IMG/VR virus record: IMGVR_UViG_3300044811_000010
Span: 1 to 64,000 of that record
DNA length: 64,000 nt
Origin: a virus
Reading direction: 5' to 3' (one strand)
Translations under genes and position numbers: made by a program
Shown: positions 1,232-44,555 of the stretch, in pieces
How positions within the stretch are numbered: position 1 is the stretch's first letter
How the letters are laid out: every line of letters begins with the position of its first letter
Notes under the pieces: generated by a model
The model's input: the letters and a program-made list of their open reading frames with translations, nothing else
The model's database searches: none
Told to the model about the DNA's origin: nothing

Positions 1232-1251
1232 CTGATAGGCTACGGTGTGTA

Positions 1252-1325
1252 GGGCCGACGTTGGAGGGCAGAACGGGTAAACGGAAACGCCCCGGCTGTC
1301 GAGGGTTCGACTCCCTCTCGGTCCA
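1252..1325 (+). ncRNA. tRNA-like RNA with alanine acceptor identity and no canonical anticodon loop
   Basis: Acceptor GGGCCGA/TCGGTCC with G3:U70 and A73; T-arm GAGGG-TTCGACT-CCCTC; central region cannot form a 7-nt anticodon loop. Confidence 0.7.
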
Positions 1326-1327
1326 TC

Positions 1328-1386
1328 GGGGATTACAGGCATCGACGCGCCTAGCGCGGACGTGGGTTCGACTCCCACAGTCTCCA
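1328..1386 (+). ncRNA. minimal tmRNA tRNA-like domain (no mRNA-like domain)
   Basis: 5' GGGGATTACAGGCATCGAC and 3' GGACGTGGGTTCGACTCCCACAGTCTCCA match the tmRNA termini (G3:U70, TCGAC, GGAC, T-arm); they are joined only by the hairpin GCGC-CTA-GCGC. Confidence 0.8.
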
Positions 1387-1387
1387 C

Positions 1388-1680
1388 TGCAAGGCAGTAC
1401 AGACGGCCGCGCGGTCCCCTGCTCAGGTAAGGCACCGTGAGGAAGGTCGAGGCATCGCGCCCCGCCACATTGGGGAGGACGAGGGGCAAGAGGGAGGGCT
1501 TAGGCCCGCTATGACCTCAACTGCGGTCAAGCGATGCGATCCCTGAAGCGCCGGCGAGTGGCAGCCGGACTGGTGGGAGCGGCGGTAGCGAGCAATCGCC
1601 CGCTAGAGCCTAGGCTCTAAGAAGGATGGTCGTCACCGGCACAGGCCGGCACAGAACCTCGCCTATCGGACTGACTTGCA
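1388..1680 (+). ncRNA. rnpB: RNase P RNA (compact, 293 nt)
   Basis: P1 TGCAAGGCAGT/ACTGACTTGCA; P2 GACGGCCG/TGGTCGTC; CR-I GAGGAAGGTCGAGG and CR-V ACAGAACCTCGCCTA form the 8-bp P4 with bulged U; P5/P7 GCATCGC/GCGATGC; P15 TCCC/GGGA with GGT in L15; P19 CCGGC/GCCGG. Confidence 0.9.
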
Positions 1681-1704
1681 TCTGTCAACGAAGTATGCTA
1701 GAGT
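1676..1704 (+). promoter_or_regulatory. promoter of tRNA cluster 1
   Basis: TTGCAT-N17-TAGAGT with TG extension; near-identical copy at 9604-9632. Confidence 0.75.
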
Positions 1705-1762
1705 TCTTCGAACGCCGCAGAGGTTGGCTCTGTAGGAGGTTTGAATCCTCCGTGCGGCTCCA

Positions 1763-1835
1763 GGGGGTGTAGCTCTAACGGTAGAGCGCCTGCCTTGCAA
1801 GCAGAGGGTTGTGGGTTCGAATCCCATCTCCTCCA
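1763..1835 (+). tRNA. tRNA-Ala(TGC)
   Basis: cloverleaf, loop CT-TGC-AA, G3:U70. Confidence 0.95.
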
Positions 1836-1863
1836 CTTGGGGAGTCTTCGGGCTCCCCGCCAA

Positions 1864-1935
1864 GCGCCGCTAACTCAGCGGGAGAGTGCCACGGTGACAA
1901 CGTGGAAGTCGCAAGTTCGATTCTTGCGCGGCGCA
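1864..1935 (+). tRNA. tRNA-Val(GAC)
   Basis: cloverleaf, loop GT-GAC-AA. Confidence 0.95.
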
Positions 1936-1941
1936 CTTCAT

Positions 1942-2014
1942 GGCCCTGTAGCTCAGCGTGTAGAGCGTCCGGTTTACACCCGGCAGGTCGTAGGTTCGAA
2001 TCCTACCAGGGCCA
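1942..2014 (+). tRNA. tRNA-Val(TAC)
   Basis: cloverleaf, loop TT-TAC-AC. Confidence 0.95.
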
Positions 2015-2019
2015 CTCAT

Positions 2020-2096
2020 GGGACAGTATCCCCTCCGTCTGATAAGCGGTAGAAAGGGTAGCTGGTAACACGAGGGTTCAACTCCTTCCTGTCCCA
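2020..2096 (+). tRNA. atypical tRNA-Ile(GAT), D-loop displaced to the 3' side of the anticodon arm
   Basis: Acceptor GGGACAG/CTGTCCC+A; T-arm GAGGG-TTCAACT-CCTTC; anticodon CCGT-CTGATAA-GCGG starts 8 nt after the acceptor; D-loop-like AGCTGGTA lies after it. Confidence 0.75.
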
Positions 2097-2100
2097 CTCC

Positions 2101-2173
2101 GCAGCGGTAGCTCAATTGGTAGAGCACCACCTTGCCATGGTGGATGTCGCGAGTTCGAATCTCGTCCGCTGCT
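2101..2173 (+). tRNA. tRNA-Gly(GCC)
   Basis: cloverleaf, loop TT-GCC-AT, U73. Confidence 0.95.
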
Positions 2174-2176
2174 TAC

Positions 2177-2249
2177 GCCTCCGTAACTCAAATGGCTAGA
2201 GGCCCGGCTCTTACCCGGTGCGATGCGGGTTCGATTCCTGCCGGGGGTA
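2177..2249 (+). tRNA. tRNA-Lys(CTT)
   Basis: cloverleaf, loop CT-CTT-AC. Confidence 0.92.
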
Positions 2250-2253
2250 CTTC

Positions 2254-2326
2254 GCTCGCATGGCGCAAATGGCAGCGCACTCCCTTGGTATGGGAGAGGT
2301 TCTGAGTTCGAGTCTCAGTGTGAGCT
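2254..2326 (+). tRNA. tRNA-Thr(GGT)
   Basis: cloverleaf, loop TT-GGT-AT. Confidence 0.95.
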
Positions 2327-2369
2327 TCGGTGGGAAATGTCGGCCGTAAGGCTGGGCGCCCATCGGTAC

Positions 2370-2437
2370 GCCTCGCCATCAGGAGATGGCCTGTCCCTTG
2401 TAAGGACGGAGGCTGGGTTCGAGTCCCAGGCGAGGCT
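2370..2437 (+). tRNA. tRNA-Thr(TGT), compact D-arm
   Basis: GCCTCGC/GCGAGGC; D hairpin CATC-AGGA-GATG; loop CT-TGT-AA; 68 nt. Confidence 0.85.
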
Positions 2438-2441
2438 CTTC

Positions 2442-2508
2442 GCCGGACGATCAGGGATCAGCCGTCTTTCGTAAGGACGGCAGACGAGTTCGATTCTCGT
2501 GTTCGGCT
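2442..2508 (+). tRNA. tRNA-Thr(CGT), compact D-arm
   Basis: GCCGGAC/GTTCGGC; D hairpin GATC-AGG-GATC; 7-bp anticodon stem, loop TT-CGT-AA; 67 nt. Confidence 0.85.
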
Positions 2509-2511
2509 TAC

Positions 2512-2587
2512 GCAGGTGTGTTCACAACGGCATGATGCTGGCCTTCCAAGCCATGCGATGAGGGTTCGACTCCCTTCACCTGTTCCA
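2512..2587 (+). tRNA. tRNA-Gly(TCC)
   Basis: cloverleaf, loop CT-TCC-AA; followed by an encoded CCA. Confidence 0.92.
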
Positions 2588-2669
2588 AGGTTGTAGGTCA
2601 CCACGACCGCTGACTCCCGCGCGCATAAAGACGTAAGGCGCGGGGCGAGGACGGTGACTGCGTCTATGC

Positions 2670-2742
2670 GGCTTCGTAGCTCAGTCGGTAGAGCAGGCCC
2701 CTGAAAAGGGTCGTGTCGCAGGTTCGAATCCTGCCGAAGCCA
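2670..2742 (+). tRNA. tRNA-Phe(GAA)
   Basis: cloverleaf, loop CT-GAA-AA. Confidence 0.95.
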
Positions 2743-2746
2743 CTTC

Positions 2747-2786
2747 AACGCCCGCTAGAGAGGTCCGATCCCTCCTAGCGGGCGTT
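2747..2786. terminator. bidirectional hairpin terminator between tRNA cluster 1 and convergent ORFs
   Basis: AACGCCCGCTAG...CTAGCGGGCGTT inverted repeat. Confidence 0.65.
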
Positions 2787-2793
2787 CTGCGTT

Positions 2794-2994
2794 CTAGGGC
2801 TTGAGGAACGTGACGACGAGTCCGATGGTGTAAGGATCTCGTTGGTTGCCACCTTCCAGCGCTGAAGCAGACGACAGTGCGTAGCCAGCGTCTGCTGCAG
2901 CCTTCAGCTCGGCGACGAACGTCTCGGTGTCTGACAGAGACGCCGGGATTGGGGTCTTCACCGTCACGGTGTCCACGCGCTTGACCTCGATCAT
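2794..2994 (-). CDS. hypothetical protein
   Basis: ATG at 2994 overlaps the stop of the upstream ORF (ATGA coupling). Confidence 0.6.
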   Translation of the reverse strand: MIEVKRVDTVTVKTPIPASLSDTETFVAELKAAADAGYALSSASALEGGNQRDPYTIGLVVTFLKP

Positions 2995-3203
2995 CCGAGC
3001 ACCAGTACGCTGTTGGCGTTCTTGACCACCGAGACGTGGCCTAGATCGTTCTCGATCCTGATGCGATAGACGACGTGCCACTGGCTGACGCGCTTAGGCT
3101 CCCCAGGGTCGAGGACGACGCCGGGAACGACTTGGCCGCTCTGGTTGTAAGCAACCCTAGCGCCCCTCGTGATCTCAGTACCTCGGCTGTCGCAGACGAT
3201 CAT
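2991..3203 (-). CDS. hypothetical protein (small, SH3-like beta fold possible)
   Basis: ORF translationally coupled to both neighbours. Confidence 0.6.
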   Translation of the reverse strand: MIVCDSRGTEITRGARVAYNQSGQVVPGVVLDPGEPKRVSQWHVVYRIRIENDLGHVSVVKNANSVLVLG

Positions 3204-3946
3204 CGGGATTCACCGGCTGCCTTGGCTGCCGCCTTGCGGCCGGCGGCGTCATCGAGCTGCTCCTGCGTCGTCTCGGGGTAGACACCTAGGATCGCAGCGT
3301 CGAGCAGCAGCTTGAGGTTGACGGGGCGGTACTTCGTCTGCTCGACCGAGAGGTTGATGTGGTTGCGGACGAACGGAACGAAGGCGTCCCGGCTGTAGCC
3401 GTTGTTGTGGATGTGGCCGTGGACGCGGATGTGGTCGGCGGACATGGGCCCGTCCTCGGCGTCGTTCCATGCGTAGTGCGAGAAGCTGACTTGGTGCTGG
3501 CAGTCGGCCGGGTCGCCGAGTGGGTCGTCAAACCCGCGCACGCGCAGGTACGGCTCCTCTGCGTGGACTTCGAGGCCCAGCGCGAACGGCCGCACGACTT
3601 GGAAGCCTGACTTCTTGTAGAAGCTGTAGGGCTGCTTGTCGTGGTTGCCGATGATCAGCAGCTTACGGGCGCCGGTCAGCTCCTTGGCGATCAGGTGCTT
3701 GAAGCGGCCGTTGCCTCGGTAGCTGAGGTCGCCAAGGTGGAGCACCGTAGCGTCGTCAGGCACTTGGGCTCGCCATTCGGCGATCATCACTTGCTCGTGG
3801 TCTTCCGGCCTATGGCAGAAGCCGACGATGTTGTCGTGGCCGAAGTGCGTGTCGGAGACGATCCAAGTGTTCTCTGGGTCGATGTCGTCACGGAACTTCA
3901 TGGCCGGGCGCGATTCGGACGCGCTGCCGGTTCTAGAGTTGCTCAT
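3200..3946 (-). CDS. calcineurin-like metallophosphoesterase
   Basis: SDTHFGH, HLGD, GNHD and HGHIH motifs; leaderless TACGAT-N6-ATG. Confidence 0.9.
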   Translation of the reverse strand: MSNSRTGSASESRPAMKFRDDIDPENTWIVSDTHFGHDNIVGFCHRPEDHEQVMIAEWRAQVPDDATVLHLGDLSYRGNGRFKHLIAKELTGARKLLIIGNHDKQPYSFYKKSGFQVVRPFALGLEVHAEEPYLRVRGFDDPLGDPADCQHQVSFSHYAWNDAEDGPMSADHIRVHGHIHNNGYSRDAFVPFVRNHINLSVEQTKYRPVNLKLLLDAAILGVYPETTQEQLDDAAGRKAAAKAAGESR

Positions 3947-4067
3947 ACGAGAATCGTACCACTAACGGGCCTGATTAGCACGCTTTCGCGAGCGATTAGC
4001 ACGATCACCGGCCCGGAATCGAAGATAAAGTGGCGGTTAGAGGGTCTAACCGCAACTTTACTGGCAC

Positions 4068-4409
4068 TCAGAACCCGAGTTCGTCAAGGCTGGCGCGTGG
4101 GTCGGAATCTAGGACCACTTCTTCGCCGCTGCAGCCCCAAGGCTCGGCGCAGGGGACGTGATGTGGGCACGGACGGGCAACGCGCTTGTAGCCCTTCGGA
4201 ATGCTGCGCGCCCTAGGAGGCGTCGGCTTGTCGATGAACACGCCGAACTCCTTGAAGCAGTCGGCGCAGAGGTCGTACTTGCGATCCGGGTACAGCCCAG
4301 GGTCCTGCTGACGGCCGTTTGCCTTCAGGCCGGGCACGTCGATGGTGCGGCGACCGCTGCGGATTTCCCTACCGCAGCGGTCGCACTCGATGATGTTCCT
4401 GACGCCCAT
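4068..4409 (-). CDS. zinc-finger hypothetical protein
   Basis: CDRC...DLCADC plus further Cys/His residues. Confidence 0.65.
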   Translation of the reverse strand: MGVRNIIECDRCGREIRSGRRTIDVPGLKANGRQQDPGLYPDRKYDLCADCFKEFGVFIDKPTPPRARSIPKGYKRVARPCPHHVPCAEPWGCSGEEVVLDSDPRASLDELGF

Positions 4410-5812
4410 CAGAGCGCCGCCCTCTCACGGATCTGGTCGAACGTCTGCTCGTTGACGAGCTGGCCGTCCTTGAACACCGTCTGCAGCGCGTCGCACTCGT
4501 CGTTGTCGAGCCACACGCCTTCCCTGTCCGTGTGGAAGGTGTTGTGCTGCAGGTTCTGGATCAGTGTCAAGCGGCCCTTCTTCGACGCCTTGGTGGAGTC
4601 CAAGGGCTTCTTGTACACGTCGTGCCACTCGCCGTCGCGTTGCTGAGCGCTGCTCTTGAACGCGAAGCGGCAGGTGTCGCGGTTGAGGCGCTGCAGGAGG
4701 CCTCCGCCCATCCCGAACACGAGGTTCTCGGGGCTGAACCCCTGCAACATAGCGCGGTTGACGATCTTCTCGATGCCATGCTCGTCAATCCCGTCGCCCC
4801 ACAGCAGCCGGACGTGCGGGTCGAGGACCCTGAATCCCTTAGGCGTCTGGGTTCCGCCGTAGTAGCTCCACAGCCGCTCCAAGAGCGCCGAGGTCAGGAG
4901 CTGCGGAGTCGGATGGTCGCGCGTGACCGAGTCCGGCCGCACGACGAACACGCCGTCGCGCGAGAGGATGCGGTCCTTGAACGTCGTCCCGACCCGATCC
5001 ACGAACTCGTAGATGTCGTAGGAGTCCGCGACGACGCTGAGGATGCCGCCGGGGTGGTTGTCGAGAAGCCGCGACGTGATCGCGGCCTCTCCATCACGGC
5101 CGAGCGAGGTCATGACCGAGTGCTCGGTCGCCGGAACGCTGAACGCCAGCGTGTTGGGGTCAGCGCCATAGTCACGGATTGCCAGAAGCAGCGCCGGCAG
5201 CGTGTCAGCGCCAACGAAGCTCGTCAAATGGCCCGCCACGGCAATCGCGGCGGCCTCATGGCCCGCTGCACCCCGGTATCCGAAGTCGTGGAGCATGAAT
5301 TGAAGCCCATCGAGGCCCGATCCGGCCGCAGTGAGGCGTTCGGCGAGCATTCGCTTGACCGAGCGGCTCCTAGTGGCAACCGTCGTCGGGTACCAGACGT
5401 GCATGAGCAGCGATTCGAGCGCGTTGGTGAGCCAGAACGCATCGGGGTCGGTGTTCTCGACCGCCATCAGCACGTTCCCGACCGGGACAACGGACCCCTC
5501 GGGCACGGCCTTGATGTGCAGCGGCAGACGCCCTCCATGCCGGTCGATGATCGTCTCCCAGCCCTTGTAGTTGAAGACCGAAGCGTCCCCGAAGTGGACC
5601 CGAGCCAGCTCGAAGGCTTCACTGAGGTTCTCGTAGGTCACGCGAGGGATGGTCTTCAGGATGGACTGCAGGCCGAAGAACACCGTCTCGTCGTACTCCG
5701 AACCCTGACGGGCTTCGAGGTAGCTGTAGACGCCGGTCGTGTTGGCCGGGTACTGATTCCAGTGGCCCAGCTTGTAACTGTCGGTTGCGAGGATCGGATT
5801 GTCGAGCATCAT
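4409..5812 (-). CDS. nadV: nicotinamide phosphoribosyltransferase (NAMPT)
   Basis: TDSYKLGH, LHDFGYRG, PATEHS, SVVADSYD, VVRPDS, WGDGI and FGMGGGLLQ motifs. Confidence 0.95.
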   Translation of the reverse strand: MMLDNPILATDSYKLGHWNQYPANTTGVYSYLEARQGSEYDETVFFGLQSILKTIPRVTYENLSEAFELARVHFGDASVFNYKGWETIIDRHGGRLPLHIKAVPEGSVVPVGNVLMAVENTDPDAFWLTNALESLLMHVWYPTTVATRSRSVKRMLAERLTAAGSGLDGLQFMLHDFGYRGAAGHEAAAIAVAGHLTSFVGADTLPALLLAIRDYGADPNTLAFSVPATEHSVMTSLGRDGEAAITSRLLDNHPGGILSVVADSYDIYEFVDRVGTTFKDRILSRDGVFVVRPDSVTRDHPTPQLLTSALLERLWSYYGGTQTPKGFRVLDPHVRLLWGDGIDEHGIEKIVNRAMLQGFSPENLVFGMGGGLLQRLNRDTCRFAFKSSAQQRDGEWHDVYKKPLDSTKASKKGRLTLIQNLQHNTFHTDREGVWLDNDECDALQTVFKDGQLVNEQTFDQIRERAAL

Positions 5813-5814
5813 GG

Positions 5815-6885
5815 CTACGACTCCTTTCGATTGAGGTAGTCCACCAGCATCCCCATCAGCGGACGGTGCTCGGGGACAAGGTTGTTGTAGAACTGCTCTC
5901 GGGAGACTGGGTTGCCGAGTTCCTTCCCGTACTTCACGTCAGGCAGGTCAATCCACTTGACCTCTTCGATGTCGTCGCCCGGCGTGGGGCGGCCGTGGGT
6001 GTACTGCGCCGTGAACAGCATCGTCTTGATGCAGTCCGGCTCGTTGCGGTAGCGCCAGTCATCGACTCGAAGCGACCCGACGTAGCGCACATCCTCGACG
6101 TTCAGGCTCGTCTCTTCCTGAACCTCACGCTTGGCGTCGGCCTCGAAGCTGTCGGAGCGCGGGTCGGAGAAACCGCCAATGAAGCGATAGAGCGTCTCGT
6201 TTGGCTTGCGGCCGAGCAGAAGCTGCAAGGGCTTCTCCGTCGCATAGAAGGCTGCGGCCTCGTCTCGATGCACCGGACACGCAGTCCGTGGCTGGCAGCT
6301 TCGACAGTCGATCCACGACTGCGAAGCCTTGCGCTCGCGCGAGGGAACGTCCTTGAGAATCGCCACGTCTACCGTCGTGTAGGCGGTCGGGAAGCGGGCC
6401 TGCGACGCCCAGATGACGCCGGCACGGAACTCGGGGCTGGACTTAGCCCGGCTGCGGGCGATGTCCTTGCGCTGCGCGCGGCCGGAGTAGAACGTGGTCT
6501 GCGTCAGCTCCTGCGTCGGGTGGTTGCCCGTGTAGTGGCTGATGAAGGAGTCGCGGCCGCCGTAGAGGACGACGCTCTGGCCGGGAGCGACGAGGTTGGC
6601 GATGTTGTCGTCAAGAACGTGCGACCACGCGCGGTCGTTGTTCAAGTCCTTGACGTACAGGACGTTGGCCTCGGGGAACTCCGCGAGGATCATCTGCTTG
6701 CGCGCCTCGAAGTCGAGCGGATTGTTCGTGGAGACGGAAAGCGGCGAAAGGCCGAGGAAGATGATGACCTTGTCGTGCCGGTCGCAGACGTACTTGATCA
6801 GCTCCCTATGAGCGTTGTGCAGCTCATGGACCTGGAATCGCCCTACCAGTACCCCTACGTCGTACTGCTTCTCTGTTGGCTGCAT
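5815..6885 (-). CDS. nadM: bifunctional NMN adenylyltransferase / Nudix ADP-ribose pyrophosphatase
   Basis: GRFQVHELHNAH (HxGH-like), NPL, Nudix box GG..REVQEET; SD GAAGGAGG before ATG 6885. Confidence 0.9.
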   Translation of the reverse strand: MQPTEKQYDVGVLVGRFQVHELHNAHRELIKYVCDRHDKVIIFLGLSPLSVSTNNPLDFEARKQMILAEFPEANVLYVKDLNNDRAWSHVLDDNIANLVAPGQSVVLYGGRDSFISHYTGNHPTQELTQTTFYSGRAQRKDIARSRAKSSPEFRAGVIWASQARFPTAYTTVDVAILKDVPSRERKASQSWIDCRSCQPRTACPVHRDEAAAFYATEKPLQLLLGRKPNETLYRFIGGFSDPRSDSFEADAKREVQEETSLNVEDVRYVGSLRVDDWRYRNEPDCIKTMLFTAQYTHGRPTPGDDIEEVKWIDLPDVKYGKELGNPVSREQFYNNLVPEHRPLMGMLVDYLNRKES

Positions 6886-6986
6886 CAGGCGCAAACCTCC
6901 TTCTATGTCCGGGCCGCGCATCGGTGCGACGGCTCTACGAGAACCGTACCACAGGGCGGCGACGAGCGCAAGGGTAGAGTGGGAGG

Positions 6987-7391
6987 GTGGCTTTTCTCCG
7001 AGTAGTCAGAAAGAACTGGGTAGTGATTCTACTTCTGTTCGCCATCGTCTCGTCCTTCTTGGCGTCGATGCAGCAGACGCGCGCCGACACGGCTCAAGTT
7101 CGATCCAAGGCAATCGCCCTCTGCACCATCGACAACCAACGCGCCGTGCTGGTCATCACCTTCAAGTTCTCGGTGGCGAGGGCGGCGGACAAGCGCGGCG
7201 AGCACGCGGCGGCTGCTCACTTCCGGGCTCTTGGAGATAGTGGGCTGGCGTTGATCCCACTTGCCCCGGAAGATCAAGCCGAGCGAGCCCACCTAGCCGA
7301 TGTCATTCCGCAGGGAGGGCACTTCGTGCTGCCGCAGAAGGCGAAGGACGCGATCCGCGCGGGATGCGTGGATTCCTACCGCGCCAACTAG
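6987..7391 (+). CDS. membrane-anchored hypothetical protein
   Basis: N-terminal hydrophobic helix; TAGAGT-N6-GTG. Confidence 0.6.
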   Translation: MAFLRVVRKNWVVILLLFAIVSSFLASMQQTRADTAQVRSKAIALCTIDNQRAVLVITFKFSVARAADKRGEHAAAAHFRALGDSGLALIPLAPEDQAERAHLADVIPQGGHFVLPQKAKDAIRAGCVDSYRAN

Positions 7392-7421
7392 GTCAGAGAA
7401 GCGTGCTATAGTCCCTGACGC

Positions 7422-7499
7422 GCTGCCGCGCATAGGCGAGCAAGGCCGGCTGTAACCCGGCGTCCTCTGGACTTGCAGGTTCGACTCCTGACGGCAGCA
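7422..7499 (+). tRNA. tRNA-Tyr(GTA)
   Basis: loop CT-GTA-AC, long variable arm, reduced D-stem. Confidence 0.88.
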
Positions 7500-7503
7500 C
7501 TTC

Positions 7504-7587
7504 GGAAGGCTCCGCTTGGTGGCAGGCAACTCGGTTCGAACCCGAGGGCGGCGTTTCTCGTTGGGGGTTCGACTCCTCAGCCTTCCG
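7504..7587 (+). tRNA. tRNA-Ser(CGA), 8/4 fold
   Basis: 8-bp acceptor GGAAGGCT/AGCCTTCC, 4-bp T-stem, loop TT-CGA-AC, G73. Confidence 0.85.
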
Positions 7588-7591
7588 CTTC

Positions 7592-7663
7592 GTCGTAGTG
7601 CTGGGAGTGGCGACCAGCCGGGCTGCAACCCCGAGAACGTCGGTTCGAATCCGACCTACGACT
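7592..7663 (+). tRNA. tRNA-Cys(GCA)
   Basis: loop CT-GCA-AC, U73. Confidence 0.92.
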
Positions 7664-7666
7664 TAC

Positions 7667-7753
7667 GGAGAGGACCCGGCTGGATCAGGAGCTTGCCCGC
7701 TAAGCAAGTAGCGCGTCCTAGATGTGTTCGGGGTTCGAGTCCCCGTCTCTCCG
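7667..7753 (+). tRNA. tRNA-Ser(GCT)
   Basis: loop CC-GCT-AA, long variable arm, G73. Confidence 0.9.
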
Positions 7754-7758
7754 CTCAC

Positions 7759-7844
7759 GGAGAGGACCCGGCTGGATCAGGAGCATCCCTGGAAAGGATG
7801 TGCGGCGGTCACGCGTCTTCAGGGTTCGAGTCCCTGTCTCTCCG
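7759..7844 (+). tRNA. tRNA-Ser(GGA)
   Basis: loop CT-GGA-AA, long variable arm, G73. Confidence 0.92.
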
Positions 7845-8031
7845 CTTGATCGCTCCAACGGCTGCCCCGAGTAGCGCGACGATCATCACCAGTGCCGCAA
7901 GTGCCGCCACTACGACAGCCGCGTAGATGACGATGAAGGGCAGCAGGATCCCCGCGACGAGCGCGATTCCGGTGCCCAAGCAGCCTCCGTCAGACATCAG
8001 CCGCAGCAGACTCCACTGCAGGCGCCGCAGC

Positions 8032-9564
8032 TCACGCGAGCGCCTCGGCCCGCGTGAGCTGCCACTCCCGCGACATCGTCTGCTCGGTGGGCTGGCAGAC
8101 GACATCGTCCAGCACGGCGTTGAGGATCTCGCCGATCTTGCGGCCGTCCGCGCCGATGGCGCGCACGTCATGGCCGTTGATCTTCAGGTCCCTCGGAGAC
8201 GTGGGGACGTTGTCCTTCTCCGCCTCACGGCGCAGCAGTTCCATCCGGCTGATCTGCTCGATGTGACCCTTGTTGGGCTTGCCCTTGCCAGTCAGGTCGC
8301 ACATGCGGTGCAGGAACAGGTCGGCCAGCAGCTCGTCCCCGAACTGCACACGCATCCGGCGGACCTTCGAGCCCTTGAGCTTGCCGTCGACGGTGACCAT
8401 GTGATTGCGAATGAGCAGGCGCACGTCCTCGCGCAGACCGTTGCCTGCGTTCAGGCGCCGAGCGGTCTTGTTCCAGATGCGGGCGCCCGCAACCTCGTGG
8501 TCCTCCGTGGCGACCATCATCGGCGCGCCGCTAGCGACAGAGCGGGACGCGGTCCCGTCCTGAGCGTAGTAGTGCTTGCGTCCGTCCTTCCCAATCCACG
8601 CCGTCTCAGGCTTGCCCGCGTCGTGGAACAGCAGGGCCATGCGGACGCGCAGCGGCGCGTCGACGTGCGTAGCCGTCGTCAGAGCAGCGAACGTGTGCTC
8701 GTCGGTGGTCAGGTCGTGGTAGCGCGAGCCCTGATCGAAGCCGATCATCGGAGCCAGCTCAGGCAGCAGTGTGGCGAGAACGCCAGTGTCGAGCGCCAGC
8801 CTCAGCGCCTTGACCGGCTCGTCGCCCATCAGCAGCTTGCACAGCTCTTCCAGCACGGTTCCGGACGCGTAGCCATTGGCGCTCAGGCCGTTTACAGCGT
8901 CAGCGTGCTCACGCATCTGGTCGAGCGTGTTGCTCGACAGGTCGTAGCCAAGCGTCGAAACGAAGCGCAGAGCACGCAGCGTGCGCAGCGGGTCGTCGCG
9001 GAACGAATCCGGGTGAGTGGTGCGGATGATCTTATGGCTCAGGTCGTACAGGCCGCAGTTCGTCGGGTCCACGACGTTCTCGACCAGTGCCCCGCCCGAC
9101 ATGGTGGTCAACGAAGACATGCCGGCAGTCGGATCCACGATCTTGTAGAGAGCGTTGAACGTGAAGTCACGGCGCACGGCGTCTTCGTCCAGCCGCAGGT
9201 TCGGGTCAACCACGATGTCAAACGCGCGATGCACGTTCTCGCCGGGGGCGGGCGCGCGAGGGCGCTCCGTGCGCGGCAGGACGACTTCGATCAGACCCAT
9301 GCCGCGCGCGGCGACCCGCCATCCGGCCTGCCGACCATCGCGCAGCACCAGCGGGGAAACGACGTTGGACTTGTTCGCGGGGTCGTACCGAATCGCGGCG
9401 TCCTTGAGCGCAATGCCCAGCTTCGCCAGTCCGACGCCTCGGATCATGTAGTCAGCGTCCTTGACCTTGCGGCCGATCAGTTCGTCTCGAACGGAGCCGC
9501 CGACGCGGTAGGCTTCGAAGCCCAGGCCGGCGATGAAAGTGTCTGTCCGCTCGATGTACGCCAT
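8032..9564 (-). CDS. cca: CCA-adding tRNA nucleotidyltransferase with HD domain
   Basis: VGGSVRD, DAD, RRDFTFNAL, FRDDPLRTLRALRF and LLFHDAGK motifs; leaderless TACGTT-N6-ATG at 9564. Confidence 0.93.
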   Translation of the reverse strand: MAYIERTDTFIAGLGFEAYRVGGSVRDELIGRKVKDADYMIRGVGLAKLGIALKDAAIRYDPANKSNVVSPLVLRDGRQAGWRVAARGMGLIEVVLPRTERPRAPAPGENVHRAFDIVVDPNLRLDEDAVRRDFTFNALYKIVDPTAGMSSLTTMSGGALVENVVDPTNCGLYDLSHKIIRTTHPDSFRDDPLRTLRALRFVSTLGYDLSSNTLDQMREHADAVNGLSANGYASGTVLEELCKLLMGDEPVKALRLALDTGVLATLLPELAPMIGFDQGSRYHDLTTDEHTFAALTTATHVDAPLRVRMALLFHDAGKPETAWIGKDGRKHYYAQDGTASRSVASGAPMMVATEDHEVAGARIWNKTARRLNAGNGLREDVRLLIRNHMVTVDGKLKGSKVRRMRVQFGDELLADLFLHRMCDLTGKGKPNKGHIEQISRMELLRREAEKDNVPTSPRDLKINGHDVRAIGADGRKIGEILNAVLDDVVCQPTEQTMSREWQLTRAEALA

Positions 9565-9603
9565 GGGAGAAACGTACCACATTGGGCTTCCGGGCGCAAG
9601 TTC

Positions 9604-9632
9604 TTGCACATGTCACGAAGATGTGCTAGAGT
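9604..9632 (+). promoter_or_regulatory. promoter of tRNA cluster 3 (divergent from cca)
   Basis: TTGCAC-N17-TAGAGT with TG extension. Confidence 0.75.
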
Positions 9633-9685
9633 CCCATCTCTGGTCAGCGCTCCGTCGGCGACGGCGGGTAGCGGGGCCAGGACAC

Positions 9686-9757
9686 TGAGGAGTAGTGTAA
9701 TGGCAGCACCGGAGTCCTTGAAACTTCGTAGTGCGGGTTCGAGTCCCGCCTCCTCAT
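9686..9757 (+). tRNA. tRNA-Gln(TTG)
   Basis: cloverleaf, loop CC-TTG-AA. Confidence 0.9.
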
Positions 9758-9761
9758 TCAC

Positions 9762-9833
9762 TGCGGAATGGTGTAACGGCAGCATGGCGGGTTCTGAGCC
9801 CGTTCGATCTAGGTTCGAATCCTAGTTCCGCAG
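9762..9833 (+). tRNA. tRNA-Gln(CTG)
   Basis: cloverleaf, loop TT-CTG-AG. Confidence 0.93.
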
Positions 9834-9838
9834 CTCAC

Positions 9839-9909
9839 TGGCGTGTAGCTCAAGGGCAGAGCCTCCGGTTGTTACCCGGCGGATGAGGGTTCGAATCCTT
9901 CCATGCCAG
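9839..9909 (+). tRNA. tRNA-Asn(GTT)
   Basis: cloverleaf, loop TT-GTT-AC, G73. Confidence 0.93.
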
Positions 9910-9914
9910 CTCAT

Positions 9915-9988
9915 CAGCGTGTGGCGCAGTCTGGTAGCGCTCTTTTCTGGGGAAAATGAGGTCGCAGGTTCAAATCCTGCCACGCTGA
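9915..9988 (+). tRNA. tRNA-Pro(GGG)
   Basis: cloverleaf, C1-G72, loop CT-GGG-GA. Confidence 0.88.
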
Positions 9989-9994
9989 CTTCTC

Positions 9995-10067
9995 GCAGCC
10001 ATGGTCTAGTGGTCATGATGCCGGCCTTTCAAGCCGGACGACGAGGGTTCGAATCCCTCTGGCTGTA
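9995..10067 (+). tRNA. tRNA-Glu(TTC)
   Basis: cloverleaf, loop CT-TTC-AA. Confidence 0.93.
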
Positions 10068-10071
10068 CTAC

Positions 10072-10144
10072 GGCGCGTTGGGGTAACGGTTAGCCTCTCA
10101 GCTTCTCAAGCTGCTGGATACGAGTTCGAATCTCGTACGCGCTA
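10072..10144 (+). tRNA. tRNA-Glu(CTC)
   Basis: cloverleaf, loop TT-CTC-AA. Confidence 0.92.
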
Positions 10145-10149
10145 CTCAT

Positions 10150-10221
10150 CGGGATCAAGTGTTTATGGCTGCACCGGCCCCTCGGACGGGTCAAGACGGA
10201 GTTCGAATCTCCGGTTCCCGA
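10150..10221 (+). tRNA. tRNA-Pro(CGG)
   Basis: cloverleaf, loop CT-CGG-AC. Confidence 0.88.
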
Positions 10222-10225
10222 CTTC

Positions 10226-10308
10226 GCTCCCGTGGTGGAATGGTAGACGCGCTAGGTCGAGAGCCTAGTGCCCTAACGGGCGTGCAGGTTCAAGTCCTGC
10301 CGGGAGCA
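10226..10308 (+). tRNA. tRNA-Leu(GAG)
   Basis: long variable arm, loop TC-GAG-AG. Confidence 0.92.
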
Positions 10309-10314
10309 CTGCAT

Positions 10315-10399
10315 ACCAGCGTGGTGAAATTTGGTAGACGCAGCAGGTTCAGAACCTGCCGGCCGCAAGGTCTTGAGGGTTCAAGTCCCTCCGCTGGTA
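10315..10399 (+). tRNA. tRNA-Leu(CAG)
   Basis: long variable arm, loop TT-CAG-AA. Confidence 0.93.
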
Positions 10400-10403
10400 C
10401 TAC

Positions 10404-10488
10404 GCAAGAGTGGCGAAATGGGTAAACGCTCCGGGCTCAAACCCCGGCGAGGTCATTCCTCTTGAGGGTTCGATTCCCTCCTCTTGTA
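10404..10488 (+). tRNA. tRNA-Leu(CAA)
   Basis: long variable arm, loop CT-CAA-AC. Confidence 0.93.
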
Positions 10489-10492
10489 CTAC

Positions 10493-10566
10493 GTCTCCTT
10501 AGCTCAGCAGGATAGAGCGCTGGTCCGCGAAGCCAGAGGCCGCAGGTTCGAATCCTGCAGGGGACG
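10493..10566 (+). tRNA. tRNA-Arg(GCG)
   Basis: cloverleaf, A20, loop CC-GCG-AA. Confidence 0.9.
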
Positions 10567-10570
10567 CTCC

Positions 10571-10644
10571 GGTGATGTAACTCAGTCGGATAGAGTGGCG
10601 GCTTGTCAAGCCGTTGGTCGCGGGTTCGAGTCCCGTCATCACCG
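10571..10644 (+). tRNA. tRNA-Asp(GTC)
   Basis: cloverleaf, loop TT-GTC-AA, G73. Confidence 0.95.
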
Positions 10645-10648
10645 CTTC

Positions 10649-10721
10649 GCCTCCGTAACTCAGCGGACAGAGTGCTTGGCCTCGAACCAAGTGGTCGCGG
10701 GTTCAAATCCTGCCGGGGGCG
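10649..10721 (+). tRNA. tRNA-Arg(TCG)
   Basis: cloverleaf, A20, loop CC-TCG-AA. Confidence 0.9.
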
Positions 10722-10727
10722 CTACAC

Positions 10728-10802
10728 GGTGAATGTAGACTAATCGGTCAAGTCCCTTGGTTGTGAACCAAGCCGATGCGGGTTCGAGTCCCGTCGTTCA
10801 CC
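10728..10802 (+). tRNA. tRNA-His(GTG)
   Basis: G-1:C73 pair, loop TT-GTG-AA. Confidence 0.93.
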
Positions 10803-10807
10803 CTCTC

Positions 10808-10876
10808 GGGTCATAGGTCATGGCGACCAAGCAGGTTCCAACCCTGCAGGACAGCGTTCGATTCGTTGATGACCCG
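10808..10876 (+). tRNA. tRNA-Trp(CCA), compact D-arm
   Basis: loop TT-CCA-AC, G73, 69 nt. Confidence 0.87.
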
Positions 10877-10880
10877 CTTC

Positions 10881-10947
10881 GGCTCTCTGAAGGTACGACA
10901 CGGTCCCTCATAAGGACGGTGGACAGGTTCGAGTCCTGTGGGAGCTA
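10881..10947 (+). tRNA. tRNA-Met/Ile2(CAT), essentially D-armless
   Basis: GGCTCTC/GGGAGCT+A, loop CT-CAT-AA, intact T-arm, no D-stem; 67 nt. Confidence 0.78.
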
Positions 10948-10951
10948 CTTC

Positions 10952-11020
10952 GCCCTTGAAGTTGGATACGCGACGGCCCTCCTAAGGCTTGCGCAGCGAG
11001 TTCGATTCTCGCCGGGGGCT
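10952..11020 (+). tRNA. tRNA-Arg(CCT), reduced D-arm
   Basis: loop CT-CCT-AA, intact T-arm; 69 nt. Confidence 0.8.
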
Positions 11021-11021
11021 T

Positions 11022-11092
11022 CGCAGATAGGTGGTCTGGTGACCATTCGGGCCTCATAAGCCTGAGAGCAGGGTTCGACTCCCGGTCTGCTA
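11022..11092 (+). tRNA. tRNA-fMet-like (CAT)
   Basis: C1:U72 mismatch, A73, loop CT-CAT-AA, G-rich anticodon stem. Confidence 0.78.
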
Positions 11093-11193: not shown

Positions 11194-11931
11194 CTACGCT
11201 ACGTTGATCTGCCGGAATGGGTCGTCGTACAGATCGTAAAGCTGGTCCACAGCAGCGACGTTGTAGACCTGGTGGCCCGAGAGCGGGAGCCCATGCAGGC
11301 CGCGCGCCTCGTGGATGTGACCGCAGACGACGGCTGCAGGGTTCGCTCGTACGATGGCGTCGTTCAACGTAGGGTCGCCGACGTTCATTCCGCCCCAGTT
11401 CCCGTACTTGTTGCGCTGCTTCTCGCTCGTAGGGATGTAGTCCCCCGCGCGATGAGGCGGCCCATGCGTCACGAGGATGTCGATTCCGGTCGGGATTCTG
11501 TCGGCGCGAGCCTGCAACGCCTCCTCCCGTCCGTAGAAGGCCCAGTAAGGCAAACCGGGCACCCACGGCGTCCCCCACACTCGCAGGCCCGCAGCGCGCG
11601 TCTCAGAGTCCTGCAGCAGTGTCCAGGGAAGATCGGGCACCAAGAACGCGTGCTCACCGACGAAGTCGTGATTGCCCCAGATAGCCACGACTTCCGTGCC
11701 ACGCTTACGGACTGCGAGAAGCCACTCGCGGAACTCAGTGTCGAGCCATCGGCCCTGCTGAAGACCGCCCTTGTCGATGCCTCCGCGTCCGAGGGCGCGT
11801 TGATCGGCGCCGCGCAGTGCGAAAGGCCGGAAGTCGGGGCAGATGTCGCCGCCGAGGATCAGCAGATCGCACTCCGGGGCTTCGGGGAGGTTACCGTGCA
11901 GGTCAGAGACGGCGTATACGACGGGCGCCAT
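11194..11931 (-). CDS. metallophosphoesterase
   Basis: SDLHG, GGD, GNHD, THGPP and CGHIHE motifs. Confidence 0.9.
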   Translation of the reverse strand: MAPVVYAVSDLHGNLPEAPECDLLILGGDICPDFRPFALRGADQRALGRGGIDKGGLQQGRWLDTEFREWLLAVRKRGTEVVAIWGNHDFVGEHAFLVPDLPWTLLQDSETRAAGLRVWGTPWVPGLPYWAFYGREEALQARADRIPTGIDILVTHGPPHRAGDYIPTSEKQRNKYGNWGGMNVGDPTLNDAIVRANPAAVVCGHIHEARGLHGLPLSGHQVYNVAAVDQLYDLYDDPFRQINVA

Positions 11932-11940
11932 GGAGACTCC

Positions 11941-12363
11941 TTATCCTTCGATGATGTCAGGCACGAACTTGGTCATGTCGGCCTCTGAGTAGCTCGGGCC
12001 GCGCAAGACCTTACCGTCGCTACGGTACAGCGGCTTGCCGTCGGTGTCAAGCTTGCTCATGTTGGCCCGGTGGACCTCGGCGAATGCGCCGTCGATGTCA
12101 AGCCCGAACGTCACAGCCGCGCCCTCGATGACGTATCGCAGGTCGGCAAGCTCCAACAGCAGGTTCTGTAGATGAGGCCACTGGACATGTAGCGGAGCAG
12201 CCCGGCGGCCCATAAACATCAGCGCATCAAGCTCGGCCATGACCTCCTCGAACTCCTCACGGATCAGCCGCGCGCGGAGGGCGACGAGGTCCACGTCGGG
12301 GATCGTCGGATGGTCGGCCGCCGGCAGGCGAAACGCGGCGTGGAACCTGCGGACGAGGGTCAT
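11941..12363 (-). CDS. MazG-like all-alpha NTP pyrophosphohydrolase
   Basis: LIREEFEE, ELADLRYV and EVHRANMSK motifs. Confidence 0.85.
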   Translation of the reverse strand: MTLVRRFHAAFRLPAADHPTIPDVDLVALRARLIREEFEEVMAELDALMFMGRRAAPLHVQWPHLQNLLLELADLRYVIEGAAVTFGLDIDGAFAEVHRANMSKLDTDGKPLYRSDGKVLRGPSYSEADMTKFVPDIIEG

Positions 12364-43611: not shown

Positions 43612-44172
43612 TCAGGATCGCCTAAGTCGGCCAAGGAGCGTCCGAGTGGAGCGCTTCTCGGCCCGTCGCGTCCGAAGCCACTCGTTGATGAGGTCCGCAG
43701 ACCAGCCGCGCTGTAGCCAATGCTTGATCTGGCTTAGCTCCTCGGGAGTCAGGTGGTCCGTCTCGATGATCGTCGGCCTGTCGCGGTAGAGATCCAGCGA
43801 GCTGAAGGTCGCGGCGACGTGGGGGCTGTCCTTGTCCACGATCTCGATGCCGAGCGCGGTGGGGACGATGGAGGCAACTTCGGTGTGCCCCTCATCCAAG
43901 ATCAGAGCGGTCTTGAACCCGCGTCCGTTGAGGTATCGCTCGATGTCGAGCAGGTGCTCCCGGTCGCGCGCCTCCATGACCAGTTTCATGTAGTGGCCGC
44001 CCTTGTACCACTGGTTGACGAGGCCCGTCTCGATCAGGTGCCCGAAGCCTTCCTCGCCGTGTCGGCAGGAGATTCGGTACGCCTCGACCGCCGCGTGGCT
44101 GGCCTGAGCGGCCGCCTTGCCGGTCGACATGCCGAGCCCCTTGTTGAGCACGATGTACATTGCTGGCCTCAT
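43612..44172 (-). CDS. pth2: peptidyl-tRNA hydrolase, Pth2 family
   Basis: MYIV...L.MS.GK.AAQ.SHA, KLV and I.D.G.TEV....TALGI motifs. Confidence 0.88.
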   Translation of the reverse strand: MRPAMYIVLNKGLGMSTGKAAAQASHAAVEAYRISCRHGEEGFGHLIETGLVNQWYKGGHYMKLVMEARDREHLLDIERYLNGRGFKTALILDEGHTEVASIVPTALGIEIVDKDSPHVAATFSSLDLYRDRPTIIETDHLTPEELSQIKHWLQRGWSADLINEWLRTRRAEKRSTRTLLGRLRRS

Positions 44173-44555
44173 GGCCGCCTCGCCTCGCAGAACTGGGTCC
44201 AGTATTGGCCGACGCAGACGCCGAAGAAGAACACCCAGCCGCTGCCCCAATCGTACGCCATCGCCAAGGTGGCTAGCGCTACAGAGATTGACAGCAAGGC
44301 CGCTGTTGCCCAGCGCTGAGTGCGTCGAGACATCAGTCGGGCCATCCTGGACCGCAGGTGACCCGCACGCGATGCGGGCACATTACATTCATGCAGGTCG
44401 TCCCCAGAGGGCACCCGCATTGAGGCATCAGCAGCCCGCCGGGGAGGGGCTCGTAGGGTCCTCGCTCAGCCTCACGAACGAACCTCTCCATAATCTCTGA
44501 CAAGCTCTCTCCTTCGCAGGCGAGCCGCACGTCGTCAGCGAACTCCAAGAGTTCC

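Follow-up and report, generated by a model that had tools for sequence, protein, structure and literature searches.

Recognition of the tRNA elbow normally falls to a region within the specificity domain of RNase P RNA. The Pyrobaculum type T, Mycoplasma fermentans and organellar RNase P RNAs keep the catalytic domain and have a smaller or modified specificity domain. Extra, divergent copies of the RNase P RNA (RPR) gene occur in Mycobacterium austroafricanum and M. sp. YC-RL4, and horizontal transfer has been suggested for them (PMC9569102). Mycobacteriophage DS6A has a tmRNA with hardly anything beyond the tRNA-like domain, and Hudson, Lau and Williams (2014) refer to evidence that a molecule of this kind strongly inhibits tmRNA (PMC4131195). 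Phage tRNAs can evade tRNA-targeting defences (PMC10264068, PMC11555353, PMC11464382), and NAD+ reconstitution by NARP2 (NAMPT plus NMNAT) is a known kind of counter-defence (10.1101/2024.02.11.579819). Our literature search found no paper on phage RNase P RNAs.

The 64,000 nucleotides analysed here (the window) come from an 80-kb contig of an uncultured soil phage, and its clade consists of high-GC soil phages, probably actinophages. At 1233-11092, on the plus strand, lies a module of four promoter-led units. Unit 1 encodes three non-coding RNAs: a tRNA-like RNA of the alanine type, a tmRNA of 59 nt that retains just its tRNA-like domain, and an RNase P RNA of 291 nt; units 2-4 are three tRNA arrays with 34 tRNAs in total. 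The features of the module and its surroundings are as follows.

1233..1241, plus strand: promoter-like extended -10, TGATAGGCT, upstream of the non-coding RNA unit (pattern match, by eye)
1252..1325, plus strand: alanine-type tRNA-like RNA (acceptor parse and fold)
1328..1386, plus strand: tag-less mini-tmRNA, 59 nt (RF00023 match and fold)
1389..1679, plus strand: reduced type-A RNase P RNA, 291 nt (RF00010 match and covariation)
1696..1704, plus strand: promoter-like TGCTAGAGT (TGCTAKAGT motif), for tRNA array 1
1714..1762, plus strand: minihelix of an acceptor-like stem and T-arm, 3' end UCCA (fold)
1763..2742, plus strand: tRNA array 1, 11 genes (ARAGORN and manual): Ala-TGC, Val-GAC, Val-TAC, rearranged Ile-GAT (2020-2096), Gly-GCC, Lys-CTT, Thr-GGT, Thr-TGT, Thr-CGT (2442-2508), Gly-TCC (2512-2584; CCA at 2585-2587), Phe-GAA
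2747..2795, plus strand: terminator-like hairpin after tRNA-Phe (sequence reading; weak)
3200..3946, minus strand: metallophosphoesterase (phosphoesterase phrog_547; Pfam 22.2 bits, PHROG 111 bits, PDB 1xm7)
4409..5812, minus strand: nicotinamide phosphoribosyltransferase, NAMPT (Pfam NAPRTase and NAMPT_N; phrog_448, 499 bits)
5815..6921, minus strand: cytidylyltransferase-like (NMNAT-type) and Nudix fusion (NUDIX 44.8 bits; residues 15-86 match phrog_395, a cytidyltransferase)
7404..7412, plus strand: promoter-like TGCTATAGT (TGCTAKAGT motif), for tRNA array 2
7422..7844, plus strand: tRNA array 2, 5 genes: Tyr-GTA, Ser-CGA, Cys-GCA, Ser-GCT (C33), Ser-GGA
8032..9609, minus strand: class-II tRNA nucleotidyltransferase, CCA-adding type, with C-terminal HD residues (Pfam, PHROG)
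9624..9632, plus strand: promoter-like TGCTAGAGT (TGCTAKAGT motif), for tRNA array 3
9686..11092, plus strand: tRNA array 3, 18 genes (ARAGORN and manual): Gln (two), Asn, Pro (two), Glu (two), Leu (three), Arg-GCG, Asp, Arg-TCG, His, Trp, CAT (10881-10947), Arg-CCT (10952-11019), Met-CAT
11194..11931, minus strand: second metallophosphoesterase (Pfam 34.6 bits; MPPED2-like in PDB)
43612..44250, minus strand: peptidyl-tRNA hydrolase, PTH2 type (PF01981, 70.4 bits), 32 kb from the module

TGCTAKAGT has three occurrences in the window where 0.29 would be expected, all of them immediately 5' of a tRNA block, and is also found in related contigs. The sigma-70 scan called no promoter for the element at 1233..1241; a TGnTAnnnT motif is present at the equivalent position in contigs L015, L016 and L097. 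The hairpin at 2747..2795 is rated weak because the terminator scan did not call it.

The RNase P RNA scores 32.4 bits (E 3.6e-7) with RF00010, far under the gathering score of 100, and 242.8 bits with our own model R1, of which it is one of the seeds and which includes the sequence columns of the P4 pseudoknot without its base pairs. Its reality rests on covariation of the fold, P4 pairing and synteny. In an alignment of seven sequences (A8: the window, five syntenic homologues and one jumbo-phage RNA), 92.4% of cells pair, compared with 35-43% when partners are slid, and 60 of the 82 pairs show compensatory two-sided change, which none of 500 shuffles matched. P4, with its bulged U (AGG-U-CGAGG at 1444-1452 with CCUCG-CCU at 1657-1664), is 100% paired in 7/7 sequences, and 4/7 of its pairs covary. 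P1-P5, P15/P16 with GGU, J18/2 and two further hairpins are present, and CR-I (GAGGAA), CR-V (ACAGAA), the bulged U, J5/15 (UGCGA) and the GGU beside P15 are conserved. The catalytic domain is whole, and most of the specificity domain is gone, with about 75 nt left; since the elbow-reading region is missing, the RNA could be weak or inactive. Homologues occupy the equivalent syntenic position in six other contigs, and the RF00010 matches in the window, L097 (56.9 bits), a complete 215-kb phage (103.5 bits) and a complete 437-kb phage (49.5 bits) all fall within tRNA clusters.

Upstream of this RNA, the predicted alanine-acceptor mimic was borne out by a 7-bp acceptor with G3:U70, A73 and a canonical T-arm. 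The element has no anticodon loop and reaches only 21.2 bits with the Rfam tRNA model; an ARAGORN call of a tRNA-Pro with intron (1229-1325) was rejected. Counterparts with G3:U70 occur in L097 and L231. The mini-tmRNA was likewise recognized by RF00023, which scored it at 51.3 bits in one search and 42.7 bits in another, against a gathering score of 47; 314 positions of the model are deleted in the match. The RNA consists of the tRNA-like domain only, a GCGC-CUA-GCGC hairpin replacing the mRNA and pseudoknot domain; homologues are found in L015 (61.5 bits), L016, L097 and L231, and none in the related contig L232. The original prediction assigned it to translation rescue, a role that does not fit an RNA without a tag frame whose published tRNA-like-domain-only type is described as an inhibitor (PMC4131195). 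The minihelix abuts G1 of tRNA-Ala, and similar hairpins with NCCA ends occur in L015, L016 and L097.

The predicted 34 tRNA genes were recovered in steps: 28 real tRNAs with ARAGORN at default settings, four more with the relaxed option (-ps; Thr-CGT, Ser-GCT, Ser-GGA and the second CAT) and two by hand (Arg-CCT and the rearranged Ile-GAT). Coverage of all 20 amino acids is secure for 19, isoleucine depending on the rearranged element. Both CAT tRNAs lack the C1xA72 mismatch and the three G-C pairs beside the anticodon loop, so the proposed initiator-like tRNA was not upheld. As predicted, an encoded CCA is limited to Gly-TCC and is lacking in 33 of the 34; the spacers are pyrimidine-rich and 2-7 nt long, and 26 of 34 trailers start with CU. 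In a sample of 17 phage genes (9,202 codons), the set decodes 52-54 of 61 codons, or 92.6-99.1% of codons; each unread codon makes up no more than 0.3% of phage usage, and reading GCC and GCT (6.6% of codons) needs four-way wobble or a host tRNA.

The protein genes named in the original prediction were all located. The nucleotidyltransferase lies between tRNA arrays and matches the PolyA_pol head (43.9 bits), the RNA-binding domain (32.4 bits) and phrog_2244 (151 bits); its HD domain, at 19 bits, falls short of the 22-bit cut-off, but the HD residues are invariant in alignment A2. It is 57-62% identical to its counterparts in G001, G002, L094 and L097. Its PDB relatives include A-adding, CC-adding and CCA-adding enzymes, and it could be CC-adding or A-adding instead of fully CCA-adding. 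Both metallophosphoesterases, one inside and one just after the region, have generic family matches and no specific tRNA link. Pth2 is present at 43.6 kb.

The expected co-occurrence across relatives was found: RNase P RNA, tRNA arrays and CCA enzyme occur together in 6/6 related contigs long enough to judge, and this conservation indicates a real tRNA-making module. In the distant relatives G003-G006, tRNAs or the CCA enzyme are present and no RNase P RNA is detectable, so the RNA is dispensable for such phages. The further claim of a self-contained, complete pathway failed. The 80-kb contig yielded no RnpA, no SmpB, no RtcB and no nuclease of the RNase Z type (Lactamase_B_2), the scanned ORFs included no synthetase, and because these partners are missing from the contig the module is not self-contained. 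Since the contig is 66% complete, the third that is missing could still encode a protein partner; RnpA was likewise not found in two complete jumbo phages with RNase P RNA.

These data favour, as the probable reading, a conserved module for tRNA supply and the upkeep of tRNA ends that depends on the host. The three arrays would yield tightly packed polycistronic precursors, each from a TGCTAKAGT promoter-like motif, with 34 tRNAs in all that fit the codon usage of the phage itself. We infer that the phage RNase P RNA is catalytic and most likely pairs with host RnpA, adding 5'-end cutting capacity. Because the spacers are just 2-7 nt, each cut would leave on the preceding tRNA a short trailer beginning with CU, which host 3' nucleases may trim before the CCA is built or repaired by the phage nucleotidyltransferase. 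The mini-tmRNA is more likely a competitor of host tmRNA for SmpB than a ribosome rescuer, and the alanine-type mimic perhaps competes likewise.

It appears unlikely that the module is an autonomous pathway for maturing tRNAs and rescuing ribosomes, independent of host pools and processing and selected against tRNA-cleaving defences. The near-complete decoding set, the joint conservation of RNase P RNA and CCA enzyme, Pth2, the known evasion of defences by phage tRNAs and the NAMPT and NMNAT-Nudix genes within the region, of a known counter-defence kind, are all consistent with such a pathway, and an anti-defence purpose of the module is plausible. Autonomy is opposed by the missing partner proteins, the inhibitor-type tmRNA without a tag frame, the rearranged isoleucine tRNA, the demands of GCC and GCT, and metallophosphoesterases without a specific link to RNA repair.

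It is still less probable that the RNase P-like RNA is a decoy that binds host RnpA or pre-tRNA and redirects or stops host RNase P during take-over. The reduced specificity domain, the low Rfam score, the lack of a detected phage protein subunit and the adjoining mini-tmRNA, itself best read as a decoy, would suit such a role. However, nucleotides that serve catalysis rather than protein binding (the bulged U and geometry of P4, ACAGAA, GGU and the A of J5/15) persist in 6/6 clade members despite heavy divergence elsewhere, and a block of RNase P would hurt the phage because its own 34 tRNAs need the enzyme. We consider it equally improbable that the locus reflects ordinary large-phage codon supplementation, with the RNase P RNA, mini-tmRNA and tRNA-like RNAs being captured host fragments of little function. 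Large phages do commonly carry tRNA arrays with a CCA enzyme (matches to the enzyme occur in 211 cultured phage records), and G003-G006 manage without RNase P RNA. Yet the compensatory changes and synteny across 7 contigs show purifying selection on the fold and not decay, the non-coding RNAs have their own promoter-like motif, and a search for a close bacterial source found none.

The host-dependent module favoured here resembles several described systems in part. Large tRNA-rich phages, for example T5-like and Cronobacter/Salmonella phages and Bxz1-like mycobacteriophages, also combine large tRNA arrays with a CCA-type enzyme and sometimes a tmRNA; the window's enzyme is less than 30% identical to any of theirs, and our searches found no report of RNase P RNA in them. 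As in NARP2, NAMPT directly adjoins the cytidylyltransferase-Nudix fusion, but the predicted pair is a neighbour of the tRNA module and not a component. Compared by description, mycobacteriophage DS6A similarly has a tmRNA that amounts to hardly more than an alanine-type tRNA-like domain (PMC4131195), whereas here the mini-tmRNA appears to share a transcript with a second alanine-type mimic and is separated from the RNase P RNA by just 2 nt. With the bacterial type-A RNA (E. coli M1 RNA, rnpB; RF00010) the phage RNAs share P1-P5, P15/P16 with the GGU loop, J18/2, CR-I, CR-V and the P4 pseudoknot with bulged U. They differ in being virus-encoded, in their length (270-374 nt), in having no cognate protein gene, in having about 19-75 nt where the specificity domain of the model has some 105 positions, in two non-standard hairpins after P16 and in scores of 32-57 bits against the RF00010 gathering score of 100. 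The extra mycobacterial RPR copies, again compared by description, likewise keep the catalytic domain and have a changed specificity domain (PMC9569102). The reduced RNase P RNAs used here for comparison are cellular or organellar genes, whereas the one described here is a phage gene.

The module divides by strand: its RNA genes are all on the + strand, and the intervening protein genes are on the - strand. Unit 1 comes after a promoter-like motif, and its three RNAs follow one another with gaps of 2 nt. These features, and a protein gene beyond the last RNA unit, are as follows.

1233-1241, + strand, promoter-like motif TGATAGGCT of unit 1
1252-1325, + strand, alanine-type tRNA-like RNA
1328-1386, + strand, mini-tmRNA
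1389-1679, + strand, RNase P RNA
11941-12363, - strand, MazG-like nucleotide pyrophosphohydrolase, directly after the second metallophosphoesterase

The motif TGCTAKAGT heads units 2 to 4, at 1696, 7404 and 9624 (3 matches against 0.29 expected), and these units carry 11, 5 and 18 tRNAs, respectively. Genes for a metallophosphoesterase, NAMPT, a cytidylyltransferase-Nudix fusion and a tRNA nucleotidyltransferase lie between the RNA units, and the second metallophosphoesterase and the MazG-like gene lie past the last one. No promoter was called by a sigma-70 consensus scan, and terminator-like sites showed no enrichment. The motif TGGTACNNT occurs at 13 sites in the window against 1.9 expected, mostly right upstream of protein genes (e.g., 915, 3953(-), 6943(-), 9571(-), 11097 and 12693(-)), and looks like a second promoter class, separate from the TGCTAKAGT of the tRNA units.

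The window covers bases 1-64000 of a contig of 80,254 bases, an IMG/VR virus from a soil metagenome; the contig is estimated to be 66% complete, and GC content is even along the window at about 64%. It codes for a portal, major head protein, large terminase, DNA polymerase, helicase and primase, as well as a protein of the Mycobacterium-phage VG64 family. Its head protein and CCA enzyme are each less than 30% identical to anything in cultured phages, and megablast of the region against cultured phages returned just one 74-nt chance match. No cultured phage is thus a close relative. The contig is therefore phage and not host contamination; the host is probably an actinobacterium.

The RNA at 1389-1679 matches the Rfam model of bacterial class A RNase P RNA (RF00010) with 32.4 bits (E 3.6e-7), short of the gathering score of 100, in an alignment that spans P1-P3, CR-I, J18/2 and CR-V and deletes the middle. 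The RNA of L097, from a related phage contig, has canonical CR-I and CR-V and scores 56.9 bits, likewise below 100. RNAalifold predicted 78 pairs from three sequences, 35 of them with compensatory change, and the covariance model of the clade RNA (R1) was built from that alignment; R1 holds P4 as sequence columns only, not as base pairs, and P4 pairing added nothing to the score. In an alignment of seven RNAs (the window, five clade relatives and one jumbo phage), in which the P4 pseudoknot was entered by hand and the nested helices were model-fitted and hence biased towards structure, 92.4% of cells are paired versus 35-43% with slid partners, both sides have changed in 60 of 82 pairs, and none of 500 shuffles matched any measure. 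The P4 pseudoknot, with a bulged U and flanked by CR-I (GAGGAA) and CR-V (ACAGAA), is 100% paired in the seven sequences and covaries at 4 of its 7 pairs. Its strands in three of them read:

Window, AGG-U-CGAGG / CCUCG-CCU
L097, AAG-U-CCGGG / CCCGG-CUU
L096 (related phage G002), ACU-U-CGGGG / CCCCG-AGU

The catalytic-domain helices P1, P2, P3, P5 and P15/P16 are 84-100% paired, with compensatory changes. All six clade members share the bulged U, ACAGAA, the J5/15 sequence UGCGA and a GGU beside P15, which, from what is established for E. coli M1 RNA, is the loop that pairs with the tRNA CCA. In the window the bulged U is at 1447 and the GGU at 1573-1575. The full specificity domain (P7-P14, CR-II and CR-III) is absent, about 105 model positions being reduced to 19 nt in L097, and in the window's RNA the P5 strands are about 75 nt apart. 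This comparative evidence identifies the RNA as a true type-A RNase P RNA, reduced but under selection, whose catalysis is putative. The G002 RNA (L016:1906-1816 (-), the same as L096) also carries an expansion of ~100 nt at P3 that folds into a long hairpin.

Relatives were reached via the head protein and the CCA enzyme, and a homologous RNA lies at the same syntenic spot in G001, G002, the contig of L097, the metagenome contigs L231 and L232, and L321. The original prediction had proposed co-occurrence among relatives as one check, and this held: RNase P RNA, tRNA arrays and CCA enzyme (48-62% identity) are found together in 6/6 clade contigs long enough to judge, namely the window's own contig, G001, G002, the contig of L097, L231 and L232. 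The mini-tmRNA is present in all of these except L232. In L097 and L231, ARAGORN reported 'tmRNA*' genes that extend across the RNase P RNA; these were rejected as artefacts. In L231, and in no other relative, the interval from the RNase P RNA to the tRNA promoter holds a strongly basic ORF of 49 residues (19211-19060 (-)), which has an AGGAGG ribosome-binding site. L321 (CAZBOT010000022.1) is a contig of 31 kb assigned to a Saccharibacteria MAG. It has the clade RNase P RNA at 143.6 bits, 69% GC at the RNA, and the 11 tRNAs in the same order; its bin yielded no CCA gene, and the contig probably belongs to a phage and was mis-binned.

CCA enzymes also led to two complete jumbo phages, each with a compact RNase P RNA within a tRNA cluster. 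That of the 215-kb phage G008 (L226, G008:6298-6587) scores 103.5 bits to RF00010 and exceeds the Rfam gathering threshold; that of the 437-kb phage G009 (L227, G009:167306-167563) scores 49.5 bits. An RNA pattern search of bacterial genomes returned 13 stretches, of which 12 were chance matches (including two Mycobacterium contigs) and L321 alone was real. A strict DNA pattern gave 69 stretches in IMG/VR, with P4 paired in already known contigs only, a canonical CR-I/CR-V pattern found two contigs only, and blastn with the jumbo-phage RNA matched no cultured phage. R1 and RF00010 detected no RNase P RNA in G003-G007; G007 ends before the expected place, and the more distant relatives G003-G006, fragments 13-74% complete, have tRNAs or a 40%-identical CCA enzyme. 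Literature searches for phage or viral RNase P RNA found no paper, the nearest published case being extra, divergent RPR copies in two mycobacteria (PMC9569102).

ARAGORN at its default setting called 29 tRNA genes in the window, one of which, a 'tRNA-Pro (ggg)' with an intron at 1229-1325, is an artefact and really the alanine-type mimic. A mildly relaxed setting brought in four more (Thr-CGT, Ser-GCT, Ser-GGA and a second CAT tRNA), most calls at -ps70 were false positives, and Arg-CCT (10952-11019) and Ile-GAT (2020-2096) were found by reading the sequence alone. The total agrees with the 34 genes predicted originally, and CCA is encoded after Gly-TCC only, also as predicted; an 'initiator-like' tRNA was not borne out, as neither CAT tRNA carries the bacterial initiator signature. 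The tRNAs are secure for 19 amino acids, and isoleucine hangs on a rearranged element missed by ARAGORN and Rfam. In this element the D-arm-like AGCUGGUA is placed after the anticodon hairpin, and isoleucine coverage is therefore uncertain; the sequence is a pseudogene or else folds in an unusual way. At the equivalent place four relatives carry a canonical tRNA-Ile(GAU). By standard wobble rules the tRNAs can decode 52 of the 61 sense codons, or 92.6% of the 9,202 codons in 17 phage genes, and 54 codons, or 99.1%, if tRNA-Ala(UGC) reads all four Ala codons. The codons left unread are used at 0.3% or less each, and the doubtful ones are ATC and ATT (together 4.4%) and GCC and GCT (together 6.6%). 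The tRNA-Ser(GCU) at 7667-7753 has C33 instead of the near-universal U (anticodon loop CCGCUAA).

The protein encoded at 8032-9609 has the nucleotidyltransferase head (PF01743, 43.9 bits) and RNA-binding domain (PF12627, 32.4 bits) of class-II CCA-adding enzymes. Its head shows the pattern GGxVRD, DxD and RRDxxxNA, and GGSVRD, DADYM, RRDFTFNA and DDPLRxLRALRF are invariant in the CCA-enzyme alignment, as are H298-D299 and H329-D330 of a putative HD phosphohydrolase domain (PF01966) that scores 19 bits against a cut-off of 22. A-adding, CC-adding and CCA-adding enzymes are all among its nearest solved relatives. A peptide-pattern search with this protein alone found nothing, relatives coming only via the alignment, and the alignment run against bacterial genomes gave relatives of at most 35% identity and no source lineage.

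The mini-tmRNA reached 51.3 bits in one search against RF00023 and 42.7 bits in another, where the gathering score is 47. It keeps the acceptor GGGGAUU/AGUCUCC with G3:U70, A73, the UCGAC loop, the T-arm and paired 5' and 3' ends, and it has no resume codon, tag frame or pseudoknots: a hairpin of ~11 nt, aligned as 3 insert nt, stands in for 314 model positions. It thus falls in the same 'TLD only' form to which Hudson, Lau and Williams assigned the tmRNA of phage DS6A (PMC4131195). Because a molecule similar to TLD-only tmRNA strongly inhibits tmRNA, perhaps via SmpB titration (PMC4131195), inhibition of host tagging is the better-supported reading of this RNA. Tag-free rescue, with Pth2 releasing the peptide, would be a possible but less supported alternative. 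The ribosome rescue originally predicted was overstated, given that the mini-tmRNA has no tag frame and that its published counterpart type is described as an inhibitor (PMC4131195).

Other small tRNA-like elements accompany the module. Minihelices or hairpins ending in an encoded NCCA lie between the tRNA promoter and the first tRNA, two each in L016 and L097 and none in L231 or L232:

Window, 1714-1762
L015 (related phage G001), about 1822-1854
L016 (related phage G002), about 1500-1395 (-)
L097, about 15545-15495 (-)

An RNase P cut at tRNA-Ala would release the NCCA minihelix with an exact CCA end. L231 carries a second alanine-type (G3:U70) tRNA-like RNA (19606-19674 (-)), with a seven-base loop containing GGU, which ARAGORN called as tRNA-Thr; if charged and used, an RNA that combines a threonine anticodon with an alanine acceptor would lead to codon misreading.

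The module had been predicted to be a self-contained maturation pathway. RnpA (PF00825), RNase Z-type (PF12706), SmpB (PF01668) and RtcB (PF01139) domains are absent from the whole 80-kb contig (66% complete), and neither a synthetase nor an exonuclease domain turned up in the roughly 50 ORFs scanned, with the RNase PH and RNase D families outside the direct search. RnpA is also absent from both complete jumbo phages. Without RnpA, SmpB or an RNase Z-type domain the system cannot be self-contained; lacking RnpA, the RNase P RNA must act with a host protein or alone, and since no 3' nuclease was found, trimming of 3' trailers must fall to the host. The metallophosphoesterases were considered as tRNA-repair enzymes, and no specific link to tRNA repair was found. 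An ATP-dependent ligase on another stretch of the contig (L308:6433-7362 (-)) matches DNA_ligase_A_M with 35 bits and RNA_ligase with 25.5 bits, below cut-off; it is most likely a DNA ligase, with an RNA-repair role as a possible alternative. What stands of the earlier interpretation is a module, real and conserved, that would make tRNAs and maintain their ends; its autonomy and its role in rescue were overstated. This correction matters in that the system is host-dependent and its mini-tmRNA more likely an inhibitor than a rescuer.

The tRNA spacers are 2-7 nt long, relatives show the same spacer style, and 26 of the 34 trailers have CU immediately after the discriminator base. From established RNase P biology, each 5' cut would free the upstream tRNA with a trailer of 2-7 nt, which host exonucleases or RNase Z may trim before the phage enzyme adds CCA. 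More speculatively, C74-U75 of those 26 trailers may pair with the GGU as a stand-in for the missing CCA, and having lost the specificity domain may suit the RNA to the phage's odd tRNAs. It is conceivable, if somewhat doubtful, that the phage RNase P RNA is a private processing enzyme tuned to the phage's unusual substrates and not mere spare capacity. With the elbow-reading domain gone, such an enzyme would rely on the acceptor end and could process substrates that the host enzyme would handle poorly: closely spaced precursors without CCA, tRNAs whose D-arms are miniature, and minihelix or TLD RNAs. Together with the phage CCA enzyme it would form a maturation channel surviving host shut-off or attack on tRNA ends.

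If true, this would place a virus-encoded ribozyme in core information processing. To our knowledge, RNase P RNA is taken to be a gene of cells and organelles only. A viral copy that is conserved, keeps the whole catalytic half but only a stripped specificity half, and lacks a protein partner would be a natural minimal ribozyme and a new class of phage auxiliary gene, and would give a direct handle on the virus share of tRNA biogenesis. Because the RNA travels with CCA-less arrays and the CCA enzyme in every informative relative, the pathway is testable in vitro as cutting, trimming and CCA addition.

Within the tRNA region NAMPT adjoins the cytidylyltransferase-Nudix fusion (4409-6921 (-)). 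Compared with NARP2, the pairing of NAMPT with an NMN adenylyltransferase is found here, NAMPT at 499 bits and the cytidyltransferase N-domain and Nudix by family match only. An AAA_28 protein (46815-47474 (-)) and a Macro-domain protein (L308:8350-9075 (-)) lie elsewhere on the contig. The gene content suggests that these genes may form an island countering NAD+-depleting defences, and NAD+ salvage genes beside the module would fit the emerging view that phage islands restore what is destroyed by host defences. Compared with bacterial class A RNase P RNA (RF00010), the phage copy is without the full specificity domain and scores below the gathering threshold, but it shares P4, CR-I and CR-V, the catalytic helices and the GGU loop.
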